A DNA stretch of 52,962 bases, counting the filler, from Circinaria calcarea (lineage: Eukaryota): assembly GCA_051942165.1 (NCBI GenBank). It is 4 parts of 4 records of this genome, joined end to end, with 100 filler letters (N's around TTAATTAATTAA, not from the genome) between each part and the next. Parts side by side here need not be neighbours in the genome. Positions count along the whole stretch, not along the records: positions 39,822 to 52,962 come from JAVECS010000523.1; 3 more parts are not named here. One strand, written 5' to 3'. Shown here in pieces: positions 6,792 to 47,907 of this stretch; position 1 is the first letter of the stretch, and the number at the start of each line of letters is the position of its first letter. The notes beneath the pieces were generated by a model, which had not been told where the DNA came from, made no database searches, and worked only from the letters and a program-made list of their open reading frames with translations. Both the position numbers and the translations under genes were made by a program.

Positions 6792-8917
6792 CCTGGCTAC
6801 CAGAACACTATGTCTGGGCCCGGTGGCAGATTACCTCCACGGTCCCGAGCTACCAGCGCTGGCGTGGATGCTCGACGCCAGTTGCGCCTGCTTGGTCGAG
6901 TGCTTTCGGAATGAGCTGAGCAGTCAAGTCGGCTCTCCTGGCTCCGAACAGGCCAGACAGCCGCAGGAAACGACGATAATCGAAGCGAAGGGGATCAAGT
7001 CCGACCGAGCTTGTCACGCAAGTTTGGGAAGGACCTGGCCGTGCGGTCTCGAAGGGCGCTTGACAATGGAGAGTTTAGCGCTGTGGAAGGATGGCGGAGA
7101 CCTCCATCAATGGCATTCACCCACCCTGTCGCTCCACGAGGATGCGTTGGAATGAAACGAGGATCGAGGGCACATGCGACGACAGCTGTCGTCGAGGGTA
7201 TGGGAAGAGTGGTGATTGATAAGAATAGCAATGCTCGAGGTGGTCTGGGATAAGGTAAGGGCTGCAAGCGGCTGCGTGGTCGACGAGGCTGTCGCGTGGG
7301 GATCTACCAGTTTGTCTGTGCGTCCAACGAAAAGCTTAGGTGCCTCCGGTGGAAGATGTAACACCTGTTGGGCAGACTCGGTGGGCTTTGTGGGTTCGGA
7401 ATTCGGAGGTGCAGGAGGAGTAGTTGGTTTCTACGATTCCGGCATGCTCCTGGGCTGAAGGCTGGCTGATGACGGGCCCTTGGGTGCAAAGAAGCAAAAG
7501 AGAGGTGGCTAGCCGCAGTCTCAATGGTACGTTCGAGTGAGAAGAGCCCGGTCACACATTGCAAGTGCCAGCCGAATGCGGCTAGTCGGGACTCGGGATT
7601 CGACATTCGACCCTCGACTCGATGTGCAAAAGAAAGCATCTCGGCCACGGACACACAGGAACAACAGTCGGGCCATATTAACTACGATTGTCTTTGTTGT
7701 CGCTTCCACGCTGGCCATTCTATCTGGATATCATCTGTCTATTCTTCGTCCTCAATCAGACAGGACTCGTCCCGTATCGATTGCGGCGTAGGATTTCCAC
7801 ACGGTTGTACAGCTCGAAACATCTTATTCGGCTCATCCGATGCTACTGTGACAACGCATCCTACTAGATAAACTGTGTGTCCTGGAAGGGTCCGAGGTAA
7901 GGTTAGCCGTCTGCTCTGATGGACACCCTCAATTACCCACTCAATCCGGAGACTACCAACATCTAACCAATGTCCCGGACGGGTATGAACCCCAGCCGAA
8001 TCTACCAATCCGCCTACAGGTCCAGAAAGGAGACGTCCCTCCATGTGTTTTGTATGTCAAAGGTGATTGTCAGTTTTGCAATAGAGATTTTCAAAAGGCG
8101 GCAGTAGTCTTGCGATGTCGACATCGTACCTTGCTTTTACGGGCTGGGGACATTTTAGTTGTGGACGATACCGTGCACGTACTGATGACCCATAGATGTA
8201 AGATAGGTAGCAAAGACACCCTAGGTTGTTGTAGATGTTGCAAGTCTTCTTAAAAAATGATACGACTTGGGGGTCCGACAGCTACTGTCACGACTTTGGT
8301 ACGATCACCTCGCCCGATATCTCAAGAAGTGGACCTATCTCGGAAGATTATCCCCTGATATTTGAACAGTCTTTCACAGCACCAGTTCGCTTCGCATTAC
8401 TCCAGGAGCAGAAATGTAAGGGAAACAAGGCGGAGAATGTTCATGCGAACGCAAGAAGGCATCTCGATATAGCCAGGTCGTATGTAAGACGGCTCCTTAC
8501 GTAGTCGTCGGGGTTGGGAAACGGCAGAGCAGATCGATCTGAAGACAGTTCTTCGAAAGCCATTCGTTAGAATATACATGCACACAACACACGAGTAAAG
8601 CATAATAACAATGTTAGCGGCCAACGAGTAAAGGACGAAGACGACGAATGAGGCCGGCGAGTTATGAACGGAGGAAGCTCCAGCAGTGGCGGGGAAAGAG
8701 CAGCGGGGACGATGGATAAATCGTGTTTAAAACCCGGTAAAAATGGATAAAGTTGGGTTGCAGAAATCCCAGATCTACCCGCTAGCGTGATCATCAGCCG
8801 GATTGCCTCACGCAGAACCAACTTTAATCAACAAACTCCCTTGACCGTCGTTACATTCCCTTCCTTTTCCCCCCTTCAGTGCCCGCACTCACCGAGCAAT
8901 TAATCTCAGCTGCTGCC

Positions 8918-10439
<1,522 letters not shown>

Positions 10440-40492: not shown

Positions 40493-41519
40493 GTTGTAGT
40501 CGCCCACTCAACGGCTGAGCGGAGTTTCAGGAGCAGGAGAAGGCTCTTTGGAGAAGTAGAGTTCCGATCGTTGAGGGAGTCTCAGTGGAAACAGCAACGT
40601 GCAGACATTATCGAGTTCGTGGAATATCTATCTGTTTGCGCCGCGAGATAGCCACATTTCAAACAAGCCGATTGCCTAAGTCCCAGAAGACTCGAGGAAA
40701 GATAAAACGTTCACATGTAGTCCTGTGGTACGTGTCGGGATTCCGTTGTTCTAATTTCAATGTGCCTGCAGCACACGGTGGATGAGAAGCAGGGCCGCCA
40801 AACGAAACGGAAGCCTTATATGGTATGCCTCGCGCACCACCTATGGTAAGCGAAGACACCTTAAAAAATCAACTTGTAATAAACATCAGTTTCGCCTCTA
40901 CCCTCAAGTATCATTTTATCATAACTATCGTACAATTACTTTAAGCCCACACCAGATCTAACACGGAGACTTCAGTCACAAATAACCACACACGAAACTT
41001 TTGCGTTGCTCATTTCCCTCTTGCGCCATCCCACTTTGTTACATAACGGCGCATAGCCGTGGCACGTAAAGGTGAGATTAATTAATATTCATCTACACTC
41101 CGTTTAATTCGTCGCCTTGTTCTTTTATACGCCTCCCCCCCCCCCCACCACACTCTGAGCCATATTTTCAATTTCTACCTTGACATCTGATATGTGCCAG
41201 TCGAGACTGCAGGTCTCTAACAACCTTCAGTATAACGGCATCACCATTGAAACCTCCATATCTGCCGATGTCCTATACTGGTTGTTGGAAATATTTGCAG
41301 TGTCGGTGGCCTTACATAGTTGTATCTTGTTAGTATTAGATACTGTTTGTGATTGCAAACTGTATATATAAAGCATAGAGTTGCTATCAAACTCACAATT
41401 CCATCTCTCATCACAACTCGATTCTATCCTACCAAATTCAGTACTCGTTTAACTAGGTATTGCTGGCAATACCGTCTACAAACTTATAAATATCCTCCAT
41501 TCATTACAAACTCAATATT

Positions 41520-42908
41520 ATGAAGCTTCACGTGTCTCTTTCTTTACTCTTTTTCTTATTCGTATCCGCTCTTGCGCTCCCAGCACCTCCTGGCGAGTCA
41601 AAAAGCAAGCAGTTAAAGACAAGGGCAAGGGCAGGGCCTCACCTTCTCCTCCTCCTGGACCCCCTCTGCCGGGTCGAAGTGGTGTACACACAGAAAACGG
41701 AATATCGAATGCTTATTACGGAGACGACCGGCTTCCTGGCCACATGCGACATCTTGACCGAAATCAGGAAAAATTCCCCCAAAACAAAGGCTCCTTCGAC
41801 CTCGCTGATAATAATGATAGAAACAGAGTCAATGCTTTAAAGGGTATAGAGAGGGAAAAGAAGCATCCAGTAACCGGAGAGGACTTGGATAGGGATGAGA
41901 AACCTCCCAATATGTTTCGCATTCCCAATCGTGAAGGGAGGACCACTGTCGAATATCGACCGAAGTCAGAATCGAGGGGTAAAAGTATGACTTTCTATGA
42001 CTAGTAGCAATGGTAACTGTATAACTAATTCAGGTATGAAATCAGATTCCGAAGGAGTTCTGCTGGGTGAATTAAGGAGAACAATGGAAGGACAAAATAC
42101 AAGAGGTCAACTGGTACCCAACCCTGGGTGGCTTCGCCTCGATCCTAATCAACAAAGAGCTCACTCGTCGGATCCAAAGTTCCGATCGAATAGCTTATAT
42201 CAAAGCGGGCATAGACCGAACCCCACTTCCGGTCAACACCGTCCACTATCACCAAAGCCCCATGCCCCGGCGCACCAACCAAAACCTGCTCCGGTAATGA
42301 AAAAACCCTCGAGTTCCTCGCAAAGGCAACCAAAACCTCCACCACCTCCCACACAGATGACTCTACGACAAAGACCTCAGCGATCAAACGCTCGGCCGAA
42401 CACACCACCGCCACAACAACACCGAGGACCCCCCGGAGGTACTTCTTTTCTTTCAAAGGGCACCCCGGCCAGGCCAGCGGGTCCTCCCTGGCGCCCTACC
42501 AAAAACAACGATAAGGCTCCACTTTTCAGAGCCCCCCCGCGTCCAGACAATCCGCAGAACAGACAACCCTCACGACCTCAGAACCACGACGCGTTGATCC
42601 GGCAGCAGAACCAAGCCCAGCCACGACCTCCACCATCTACGAACCGCCCTCCCGGTCAGAGTCGCCCACAGTCCGCCACTCCCCGTCTTCCAACCAGCCA
42701 GTCTCGTCTTCCAACCAGCCAGTCCCGTATTCCAACCGGCCCGTCCCGTATTCTAACCGGCCCGTCCCGTATTCAAACCGGCCCGTCCCGTATTCCACGC
42801 CCTGTCAACCCCCCAGCCGGCGTCCGCCCTCGCCCTGATAGTCGGCAATCACCCCCAGGAGGGCCTTCGTCTCTGGGCCATCGCCGCCTGGATCACCAAA
42901 CCCATTAG
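41520..42908 (+). CDS. Secreted protein with NucA/NucB-like nuclease domain and Pro/Arg/Gln-rich tail (one-base frameshift at A5 run 41600-41604)
   Basis: Signal peptide MKLHVSLSLLFFLFVSALA-LP. Adding one A joins it to KQAVKDKGKGRASP...AYYGDDRLPGHMRHLDRN...NRVNALKGI...LDRDEKPPNMF...TTVEYRPKSESR. An intron (41979 or 41985 to 42045, CTAAT branch) then leads to SEGVLLGEL and the low-complexity tail. Confidence 0.7.
42684..42797 (+). repeat. 21-bp coding minisatellite, ~5.4 copies (R-[LI]-[PLQ]-T-[SG]-[QP]-S)
   Basis: cgtcttccaaccagccagtcY x2 followed by cgtattcNaaccggcccgtcc x3, read directly. Confidence 0.9.
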
Positions 42909-44069: not shown

Positions 44070-46399
44070 TTATGGTGGTTGATGAGAATATTGATGAATT
44101 CGGTGGTCGGGCGACGTTGGAATACTAGGAATAATGGGCATGTTACTCCCAGAGTTACTCCCAGAGTTACTCCCAGAGTTACTCCCAGAGTTACTCCCAG
44201 AGTTACTCCCAGAGTTACTCCTAAAGTTATTCCCAGAGTTACTCCCAAAGTCATTCCTAGAGTTAGACAAGCCCTGTATACGGAGGATTTCTGCCTCGTA
44301 TCGTCTTCTCCGGTTTCTCTCAATCTCCTGTTCGGCTGCAGTCGTCTGGCTGCCGCCAAATCCGAAGTTGTGGTTCCAGAGGTCACGACGGCGACGTTCT
44401 TCAGCGTGGAGCGTTTGAAGATATGATGGGTTTTGGTTCGGGCTATTGCTACCTACTAGACGTTAGTATTGACATTTAGAATTGGCTGAGAAACAGACTG
44501 CCAGTTCTGTGTTTGAACTTCGTTAGGACCTTGTCGCATCTCTTTTGCCACTCCTTGTGGAAACTAAAAGGGGCTAGCTCGATCGAGTCGCTTTCAAAGG
44601 ACAATGTCACTATAGAAGACTGGTGCTCTTCAAAAACATTATAATCCCAGAGAAAGTCTTCTCCGAGTATAACATCAGAGCAGCAATTCTCAAGTATCTC
44701 AAAAGTTAAAGGGATCCGCTCGCCAGACGCAAAAGTCCAATGCGTACTGACTTGCCCGACCGTCTTTTGAATACTACCATCTGCGAATTGTAGGTAGTTA
44801 TAATGTTCTGGTCCAATTTGGATATCAAAGCCATGGTCCATTGCATACCTGTAAAACTCAATAATTAGCCGAGTTTATAGCTGCGTGAAGCGCAAGAGCA
44901 TATATTAAGAGTCCTCAAACACAGCATAATTAATTATAAGGTTGCGAACGCACAAATCTGAATTAGAGCAGAGTATTATATTAGTGTCTAAAAAAGCGGA
45001 TAAATTCTGGAAGTGATAAGGGGCAGGCCAAGTCAACCTACTGCATATTCATCACATTTCGCTCTGCACCTGTATCAGGAGAAGCAAGCACTGTTTGTGT
45101 ATCCCCGAGTGTGCCCTCTAGAAACTGGTAGTTGTTATCCAAAAAGTTAAAGTGAAATACATTGACTACAGAGAAAATACATTCAGTTACACGCTGTCGA
45201 TGTTTAGACATTGTTTCAGTAGCCGTTAGGAATCCACTACCAAGGATTAGGTCGTACGTGCATTGCGGAAGTACGTGGCAAATGATATTGAAGGTCTCTG
45301 CGGGATTCTCTGCGAACGCCCAGAGCATATTTGTCGTGCCTGTAAGTAGTTATGAATCAGCGTTTCGAGATTTTTCTAAACGTGACATTGACCTGGCTAC
45401 CTATAGACTGAATCTTCTTCGAGTTTCCAATCTTTATTGAAGAAGGTGAGACTTCTATCTCAAGACCGGCTTCTTTGGCATAATCTGCCGACATGAAATT
45501 ATGCTTCGCACCGGTGTCGGCTAATGCCGATTTCTTAGAGCCATTTACAAAGCCTGAAAGACCTCTTTTGATTTTGGATATCTGATTCCGGACGCCGGTA
45601 CCCAGGCGGAGGGCGTGAATCCCATGTTTCCACATTCTCGGGGGTAATGAATATTTGGCTGCCAGTCGACGTGCGGCTGGACTAGCAGAAGGATGCTGAG
45701 ACACAAGGGAAAAATCATGGTGTTCTTGAAGTAAAGTCTGATGTAGAGCCATCAACGTTTGCCACTTTTCTTGTGTTTGATATATACGATTTCTATCTTG
45801 TGTAGCTGCAGACTGCTTCACATCGATGTCGATACATTTGGCTTCGACCACGAACAAGTCAGTATAAATGACTTTAACTTCAGCAACCAATTGTTCATGA
45901 GAGATGGGATGGTTTTCAGGCTCTAATAATAGTTCCGGCTCAGGATCAAAACGGGTACTGTGAATCGATTCCTCATCATGCTGATACAATCGATCTGATT
46001 TGACCGCACCGCTTTTAGAATGTGATGACTTAGTTCTGGTAGACCGCTGTTGATGAAGCCGCAAGTCCCACTTGCTCAAAGAAGAAGCGGGCCGTACAGC
46101 AGCCAGACGACCAAGGACGCTTTTGGGTCCCTCGGTTGATCCGCGAAAGGACTCATTTGTCGGTAGATTGTATCTAACAACGTTATAAAGATTAACTACG
46201 CGGACAGAGGTTTAAGTCGGAGGTGCCGTGAGGCAATGACTAACTCCTTGAGCTCCAGGAACATATCAGCATCTTGAGGCTGCTGCTGAGCAATATCCAC
46301 AGTAAGTTCGCCCCCTACATCATTGAAGTAGGTATCAGAGTCGCATGCTGCCAGCATGGAAGACGGGAGGCCTTTGCCGAGCTGGACTGCAGGATCCAT
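44070..46399 (-). CDS. Tandem double retropepsin-like aspartic protease with N-terminal Est1/SMG7-like fragment and N/S/G-rich tail (start exon uncertain)
   Basis: Exons ~46200-45401, 45339-45042, 44848-44499, 44452-44070 splice in frame. Domain 1 is ALADTGAKHNFMS...DLILGSGFL (DTG 45518-45510) and domain 2 is ASPDTGAERNVM...FADGS...DVILGEDFL (DTG 45076-45068). I could not fit the link to the ATG at 46399 with a clean intron. Confidence 0.75.
44142..44265. repeat. 12-bp minisatellite (GTTACTCCCAGA)n, ~6 perfect plus ~4 degenerate copies
   Basis: Read directly. It lies in the last exon of the protease gene, encoding (GSNS)n, and explains the four spurious overlapping ORFs there. Confidence 0.92.
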
Positions 46400-46779
46400 A
46401 ATGAGCCTGCAAGCTCTGAGAGGGTTGTGAAACTAGACAATGTATATGAATAAAGGCTGGAGAGTGAGGATCAGATTTCCATCCTGCGACTCCCTCCTTT
46501 GGGTCCGAAGGATTGAGACTCAAGGAAAAAAAGCGTCTTGCGCTGGTAGAAAAGCAGTCTGAAGGGAGTGACAGCACTTTGGCAAGGGTATAGATAGGTA
46601 CTCAGCCCCACTTGGTCCTTTGGCTCATGAGCTTGCCCCGCCAAACCTCGATGCCTCAGGCACGCTGCTACTTTGAAGTGAGCAGCCTGCTGTCTGCTTG
46701 AGTCACTAATGATTATTCTACGTGTTCGATTTTAGATGAGTTTGGAGGCTTTTGGATTGCCATCCGCCTCCACTAGTAT

Positions 46780-47907
46780 ATGTTGCGGAATAGGCCAAAG
46801 GTAGTAGACATCGAGTTGGCCGAAGCGTCTGTTGCACCAGCGCGGCTTGATGGTTATCCATCTTTTGCGGATTTCATTGCGAAAGACCGCGACGCAGCAA
46901 TCTATCGCAAGTTTGAGCGCCTCAGCGCACGCAGTCTGCTCTACCAGCAGAGTGAACTTCACGAGCTCGAAAGACAGCTCGAGCAACTGGATTGGGAAGA
47001 TGCTACAGATATCGGCAACGAGGAAGCTCAACAAGCAGCGCGTTATTGGACAAACTTCATTCATGATACAAACGATAAAGCATATGCACGCCAGACTCTC
47101 CAAGGCACGATAAGAGTCAAACTCAAGGAATATCGTATGTGATAGAGAGCTTGTCTCGGAAGGGTCGCGCACATGTACTAAATGTTGGAGAACAGATGAA
47201 GCAATGCTCCTTGAGGCCAAAGTTCTCTCGCTAAATTCGCCTACCTCGCGCACATTGAGAGACTTCAGGAAGTGGTTCGTGTCGAATTCAGTACCCGTAC
47301 TATGGGGCCGAGACAAGGACCTTTACAAGAACGAGCTAGATCTCGTGGCCCTTGCGCCAGTCGACTCAGACCGGTTGAATAACTTTCTGAAGAGGTTCTT
47401 TGGCTGGATTTTCAAAGTACGTGACGTTCATATGGGCGACAACCTCCCCTTCGCGGAGGGAGAATGAGCTCAGACATTGGCTGTGATCTCTAGCTAAGCT
47501 CATATCAGGAGAGACGTGAGGATCTCCCGCATGGAGGCGACCTGTTCTACTTCCCAGAACGGCGGATACAGCGCGCTGGTGCTGCCATCTCTGCCATCTT
47601 AAGTGCCATACTCTTGATTGGTGCTATTGTGTGCCTACTCGGAGTATCGAACAAAGGCATTGGCATCCGCACGGGGATGATTGTACTCTTTACCTGTCTG
47701 TTTGCCGCTGTGGTTGGGCTTCTCACCAATGCACGAAGAGCGGAGATTTTCGGATCAACGGCGGCGTAAGTCATCCCCAATCGGCAATGTAATTTGCAGT
47801 GGCTGTCTATATTGTCAGTACTGACGTTGCCTGGGTATAGGTACGCTGCTGTCCTCGTCGTGTTTGTAAGTACCAATATTGGGAGCAGGCCTATGACACC
47901 ACCGTAA
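46780..47907 (+). CDS. DUF6594 family membrane protein, 4 exons
   Basis: GYPSFADFIAKDRDAAIYRKFERLSARSLLYQQSELHELERQLEQLD, IRVKLKEY|HEAMLL, DLVAL...DRL, about three C-terminal hydrophobic helices ending ARRAEIFGSTAAYAAVLVVFVS. Exons 46780-47134, 47196-47416, 47509-47765, 47841-47907. Confidence 0.85.

Follow-up and report, generated by a model that had tools for sequence, protein, structure and literature searches.

A divergent double-retropepsin protease and DUF6594 gene pair in Circinaria calcarea may represent a family of protease-partner switches in defence or cell death

The closest described counterparts of the locus reported here are the fungal gasdermin/protease clusters, such as Podospora het-Q1/het-Q2. 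In these, according to Clave et al. 2022 (PMC8851545), a protease gene lies no more than 10 kb away for 80% of the gasdermin genes, and each gasdermin clade keeps to one protease type. The present locus is a head-to-head pair of a double-retropepsin aspartic protease gene and a DUF6594 (PF20237) gene, located in a 52,962-nucleotide (nt) window of Circinaria calcarea (assembly GCA_051942165.1). The window, i.e., the whole stretch of DNA that was analysed, consists of four contigs joined by N spacers, and the pair lies entirely on the last one (G000:C523; other contigs of this genome are cited likewise). It is a member of an undescribed protease-partner gene-pair family, which may act as a defence or cell-death switch.

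The DUF6594 pairs resemble the gasdermin/HET-Q2-like clusters in consisting of two genes, for a protease and a putative membrane effector, present in many dispersed copies, in the long and variable extra domains of the proteases, and in effector clades that keep one protease type (for DUF6594, one tree step separating 10 from 8 tips). Most effector genes are found near a protease gene in both systems (14–15 of 25 loci for DUF6594). The two systems differ in that the DUF6594 partner is predicted to be all-helical with three membrane helices and no gasdermin fold, and in that its proteases belong to the retropepsin-like or C14 caspase-like classes rather than to S8 or CHAT. For the DUF6594 pairs, cleavage and death would follow only by analogy.

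Both genes of the pair were found to be intact, with open spliced frames, and to be divergent, as proposed in a preliminary description of the locus, and the interval, which had been put at about 0.4–0.6 kb, separates the start codons by 380 nt and is probably a shared bidirectional promoter (coordinates in Table 1). The gene models were inferred from splice signals and homologues, the latter agreeing with protease exons 3 and 5. At 43 nt, the final intron of the protease gene is short, and its donor is weak, but the exon that follows agrees with homologues at their C-termini. In the public annotation of the same contig (P0027, P0174), the genes are spliced differently and their locus tags are consecutive.

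DUF6594 matches occur on at least 28 contigs of the genome as dispersed copies. Three of the 28 loci have no upstream DNA; among the other 25, a protease gene was present within about 3 kb at 14 loci, or at 15 including one weak match, which is the neighbourhood enrichment predicted by the preliminary description. The chance expectation is 0.07–0.7 paired loci, assuming 20–200 such protease genes per genome, a comparison that overstates the case, as the DUF6594 paralogues are not independent. Both double-retropepsin genes found in the genome (C523 and C3210; 36% identity between the proteases) stand head-to-head with DUF6594. The proposed pairing of this protease type with DUF6594 was thereby borne out, but the link is wider than had been proposed, with caspase-like partners (10 loci) outnumbering retropepsin-like ones (4–5 loci). 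Only 4 of the 10 caspase-like calls pass Pfam C14 at E < 0.01, the rest being based on His-Gly and Asp-x-Cys motifs and mutual similarity. Conversely, DUF6594 lies beside 10 of the 15 caspase-like genes that were found; of the five without it, one is the canonical metacaspase and four are on contigs of 1.7–4.6 kb. In the flanking DNA examined, no DUF6594 was detected beside housekeeping DDI1 (C2166) or the canonical metacaspase (C2169).

The pair recurs in two Flavoplaca species as consecutive accessions (KAL8886834/5 and KAL8834971/2); adjacency was assessed via locus-tag matching and applies to these two species only, the F. limonia and F. austrocitrina copies being on separate short contigs and 10 further proteases yielding no information on neighbours. 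A metagenome scan with the close DUF6594 clade yielded 13 loci, with an intact divergent double protease beside DUF6594 at L081 and L084, and a broken protease beside a frameshifted DUF6594 gene at L086 and L087. Long upstream DNA was present on 5 metagenome contigs from 2 species-level groups, and a protease on 4 of these 5. No gene flanking the pair on C523 was common to any of the loci compared (8/8). Enrichment, the head-to-head order of both double-retropepsin genes and recurrence in Flavoplaca and metagenome contigs together lend good support to the functional coupling suggested in the preliminary description, and we regard coupling of the protease with DUF6594 as very probable.

A maximum-likelihood tree was calculated from 41 DUF6594 sequences, leaving out 3 short and 5 redundant loci. 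One edge of this tree has all 10 copies with a caspase-like partner on one side and all 8 with a retropepsin-like partner on the other, and the clade holding the latter has a support of 99. Protease-type labels require 1 step on the tree, compared with a minimum of 2 and a mean of 6.2 steps in 5000 shuffles. As judged from these sequences, the split indicates a long-lasting partnership between DUF6594 and its proteases.

The protease comprises 653 amino acids (aa) without a hydrophobic segment. Its earlier assignment as a double-DTG, A2-like enzyme was confirmed by the two DTG motifs (D271 and D398) and by lobe 1 matching PF13650, above the cut-off, and PF13975; D-[TS]-G motifs and profile match place it among the clan AA retropepsin-like proteins. 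The motif is retained in nearly all first and second lobes of the homologues (Table 1), and therefore catalysis appears to be under selection. A profile search retrieved 2074 representatives of the family at E ≤ 0.001, the named members being from lichen fungi, Daldinia, Hyaloscypha and Dendryphion. The closest solved relatives are the protease domains of DDI1/Ddi1 (profile match, E 3e-10). The window protease shares with DDI1/DDI2 the retropepsin-type domain with D-[TS]-G, but is two-lobed in one chain, lacks UBL/UBA, and has a variable N-terminus and a fixed DUF6594 neighbour. Its identification as a DDI1 orthologue was rejected on account of the two lobes and the missing UBL/UBA, the true DDI1 being the separate gene at C2166. 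Five other contigs with PF13650 matches resemble retrotransposon pol frames and were set aside. Contig G000:C547 (L072) carries two divergent retrotransposon-like gag-pol units.

Inspection of protease exon 2 revealed a piece that had been overlooked in the preliminary description, an in-frame fragment of the genome's own Est1/SMG-like gene. It matches the native gene (G000:C2:59181-59531) in 268 of 333 nt (80%, E 2e-86, blastn) and in 72% of the amino acids, with a synonymous divergence (dS) of 0.53, a nonsynonymous divergence (dN) of 0.15 and dN/dS = 0.27 over 107 codons; by this ratio, constraint on the fragment is relaxed but not neutral. The native donor gene is intact and, as expected for the Est1/SMG5-7 family, matches PF10373 (33 bits) and the SMG6 and SMG7 structures. 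The copied part, unlike that family, comprises only ~110 aa upstream of the donor's Pfam-matched region and itself has no Pfam match. For protease exon 1, Pfam and genome searches found no source.

Among 114 protease homologues with a long N-terminus, an Est1-like piece is present in 25 and the DnaJ group in 24, the remaining heads being Zn2Cys6, TPR, repeats or unique sequence; these counts include near-duplicates and automatic gene models. On the protease tree, the Est1-like heads (25 of 162 tips) require 15 steps, compared with at least 19 in shuffles, and are thus scattered but partly clustered. The window piece is at most 64% identical to 14 other fused pieces, compared with 72% to its own native gene. 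Four lichen-type fused pieces, too, are closer to this native gene than to one another, and the core of the window protease shares no more than 59% identity with other Est1-fused cores. Judged against a single native Est1-like gene, these comparisons favour copying on several occasions, or gene conversion, rather than one old fusion.

In plant integrated decoys of nucleotide-binding leucine-rich repeat (NLR) receptors and in tripwires of the NLRP1/CARD8 type, a degenerate copy of a host protein is fused to a signalling protein and swapped between lineages. The window protease carries such a degenerate, lineage-specific host-protein copy, fused in frame to a putative signalling protein, as is characteristic of an integrated decoy. 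It differs from these systems in that no NB-ARC/NACHT is present, the carrier is an aspartic protease, which is not known to have a pathogen ligand. The captured piece may have a sensing role; taken alone, it could equally well be tolerated debris. No paper on decoy or Est1 capture was found in the literature search.

We also considered that there is no functional link at all, the two genes belonging to a co-mobile or co-duplicated segment with the Est1-like piece as debris. The flanks differ between loci, many protease N-termini resemble decaying gene pieces or repeats, and the fragment carries 31 amino-acid changes from the native gene, all of which agree with this explanation. It is nevertheless highly improbable, given that the genes stay linked even where two proteases of the same genome are 36% identical, that the DUF6594 tree shows such linkage with two unrelated protease classes, that the catalytic motifs are conserved, and that the fragment has an open frame at the above dN/dS.

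For the DUF6594 gene, three exons pass the PF20237 cut-off (73, 34 and 65 bits; cut-off 30). The protein had been described as a soluble helical N-domain followed by about three transmembrane helices, and the AlphaFold2 model of the close homologue P0175 agrees with this in predicting a helical hairpin and three membrane helices. The model (predicted local distance difference test, pLDDT, 78.5; predicted template modelling score, pTM, 0.56), which replaced an earlier one from 11 sequences (pLDDT 52), has a disordered tail followed by a long hairpin of helices (46-129) and, at the C-terminus, three further helices (210-238, 244-265, 270-293); it is nearly all helical, with two 3-residue strands only. 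The possibility that DUF6594 is a gasdermin was rejected, since the model lacks the beta-sheet core and Pfam assigns PF20237. Foldseek gave no match at E ≤ 0.001, be it to helical pore-formers such as NINJ1, MLKL/HeLo and ClyA or to other structures, and the best structural match was to generic hairpins (VIA Z 8.9), covering residues 40-152 only. In the double-retropepsin clade, the tails repeatedly contain a D-[IV]-E-L-A-like motif, a candidate site of cleavage or docking; motifs of this kind are frequent in the tails of fungal membrane proteins. A complex prediction for the cognate Flavoplaca pair P0038 + P0180, made without alignments, scored 0.00 and is uninformative either way.

The predicted architecture, a soluble domain on a membrane anchor without a pore-like fold, would also suit regulated proteolysis without death. 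The protease would then serve development or stress response, by releasing or maturing the cytosolic hairpin domain of a signalling protein that is anchored in the membrane. DDI2, which processes NRF1, is a model for such release from a membrane anchor, and DDI1/Ddi1 domains are the closest solved relatives of the protease. We consider this conceivable but unlikely: 28 dispersed copies, joint decay, missing synteny, two unrelated protease classes and fast-swapped N-termini seem more typical of conflict loci, and Pfam and atlas structure searches found no DNA-binding or enzyme domain in DUF6594. The coiled hairpin could, as modelled, instead be a docking platform. DUF6594 would then serve at the membrane as sensor, scaffold or inhibitor, and the protease would be the effector and act on other targets; a toxin-antidote arrangement would be one variant of this. 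The persistence of orphan DUF6594 copies (10 of 25) agrees with this reversed polarity. Such a polarity appears doubtful, since two unrelated protease folds would have to fit the interface of a scaffold or inhibitor, where a substrate would need only a new cut site, and since the sensor-like variable domains are on the protease and not on DUF6594.

One membrane family pairs with two unrelated protease classes bearing variable, sensor-like heads, and a cleavage-activated substrate is therefore the simplest account. According to this account, the protease and DUF6594 would be co-expressed from the shared interval, and the two lobes would form a single-chain retropepsin active site gated by the variable N-terminus. 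The active protease would cut the cytosolic part of DUF6594, with the D-I-E-L-A tail as candidate site, and the cut protein would then either permeabilise a membrane or release a signal there. That DUF6594 is the substrate of the protease is rather likely. By analogy, its output may be death or defence, for which the chances seem balanced. The best explanation of the locus, held with a similarly divided confidence, is a two-gene, protease-gated module in which a sensor-protease cuts a membrane effector, most likely in defence or regulated cell death.

Several observations weigh against a cell-death module. Conserved linkage fits any protease-partner pathway, and cleavage, toxicity and a defence role rest on the gasdermin/protease analogy. 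Kin share tree labels, so that the partner-class split amounts to about one ancient event. No protease was found at 10 of the 25 DUF6594 loci, with upstream DNA limited to 1.4 kb at one of them, and there is none at C1232, whose DUF6594 gene is nearly identical to the paired one of C834. Among the metagenome loci, L085, with 96% identity to L086, stops short of the protease core, L078 shows no protease in 1.9 kb upstream, the upstream gene of L088 is a divergent E2-like frame running off the contig, and 6 of 13 have less than 0.6 kb of upstream DNA. The DUF6594 model has no clear match among known pore-formers, other solved folds or atlas models outside the family.

Partner architectures across the DUF6594 loci include TPR, kinase-like and a nearby CHAT gene. 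At G000:C186 (L053:1174-4789, -), a large TPR gene of receptor-like architecture, whose C-terminal part is retropepsin-like but degenerate, is divergent from DUF6594. At G000:C126 (L066:2-3820), DUF6594 is clustered with a C14 caspase-like gene and, further upstream, with a CHAT gene. At G000:C42 (L062:571-2913, 6874-9200), a caspase-like and kinase-like fusion lies upstream and a kinase-ankyrin gene downstream of DUF6594. The partner at G000:C2985 (L061:984-1499) is single-lobed, with DET in place of DTG, and is possibly a pseudo-protease. Two recently duplicated DUF6594 pairs, C246/C1157 and C536/C553, have no detected protease; upstream of C1157 is a gene that we take to be transcription-factor-like. 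L088:1-728 (-) contains a degenerate ubiquitin-conjugating-enzyme-like (E2-like) frame (PF00179), head-to-head with the DUF6594 gene, on a contig that ends before any protease. It appears to have Ser at the catalytic Cys position and may be another captured N-terminal piece. An assignment of the L086 N-terminus as Nma111/HtrA was not confirmed (E about 0.7).

The neighbours of the pair are mixed, with small lineage-specific open reading frames, DUF3237 and a GH3 glycosidase (Pfam). Window positions 41518-42908 contain lineage-specific frames without a Pfam match. One encodes a small protein whose start resembles a signal peptide; another is proline-rich and includes a 21-nt repeat (42682-42797).

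Table 1. Features of the gene pair (window positions) and of protease-paired DUF6594 loci in the genome (contigs).
Feature	Position or contig	Strand or orientation	Remarks
Double-retropepsin (A2/Ddi1-like) aspartic protease gene	44070..46399	-	5 exons, 653 aa, cytosolic
Protease exons	46399-46245, 46173-45401, 45339-45042, 44848-44499, 44455-44070	-	spliced open frame
Protease exon 1	46245..46399	-	no known family, single copy in genome; start same in public P0027
Captured fragment of the genome's own Est1/SMG-like gene	45608..45931	-	in frame, protease exon 2, about aa 131-239
Catalytic DTG, lobe 1 (D271)	45510..45518	-	D[TS]G in 160/162 homologues
Catalytic DTG, lobe 2 (D398)	45068..45076	-	D[TS]G in 201/215 homologues
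C-terminal family motif E-x-x-RR-x-x-W-N-x-x-x-G	44270..44420	-	alignment consensus, homologues
12-nt tandem repeat, 10.3 copies	44142..44265		encodes (NSGS)n in protease tail
Interval between start codons	46400..46779		380 nt, single copy in genome
DUF6594 (PF20237) gene	46780..47907	+	4 exons, 299 aa
DUF6594 gene exons	46780-47134, 47196-47416, 47509-47765, 47841-47907	+	spliced open frame
D-I-E-L-A motif, N-terminal tail	46807..46821	+	recurs in double-retropepsin clade; tail low-confidence in model
Three predicted membrane helices	47569..47875	+	about aa 214-289, hydropathy
Caspase-like loci	C260, C1578, C42, C126, C265, C1475	divergent	six loci
Caspase-like loci	C834, C807, C1406, C401	same strand as DUF6594	four loci
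Retropepsin-like loci	C523, C3210, C2985, C444	divergent	C2985 and C444 E about 2e-6 each
Weak fifth retropepsin-like locus	C186	divergent	E 0.003

A literature search, with supplementary tables and subscription journals outside its scope, found no paper naming DUF6594 or PF20237; the available part of a 2025 review (PMC12881547) contains nothing on DUF6594, and a query for retropepsin, filamentous fungi and cell death returned off-topic matches only. In a bolder and rather unlikely version of the above explanation, DUF6594 would be the executioner of a second large protease-gated cell-death family of filamentous ascomycetes beside the gasdermins. The retropepsin arm would be a decoy sensor that time and again copies pieces of host proteins (an Est1/SMG-like RNA-surveillance factor, J-domains, an E2 enzyme that is possibly dead) onto its N-terminus and is tripped by a virus or microbe attacking the real protein. 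For DUF6594, a large orphan fungal family with 28 loci in this genome, the linkage provides a directly testable function. If DUF6594 is indeed a cleavage-activated effector, it would open a new way of executing regulated cell death in fungi and provide orphan caspase-like and tandem retropepsin proteases with a class of substrates, and Est1/SMG-like capture, if recurrent, would point to host proteins attacked by fungal parasites.
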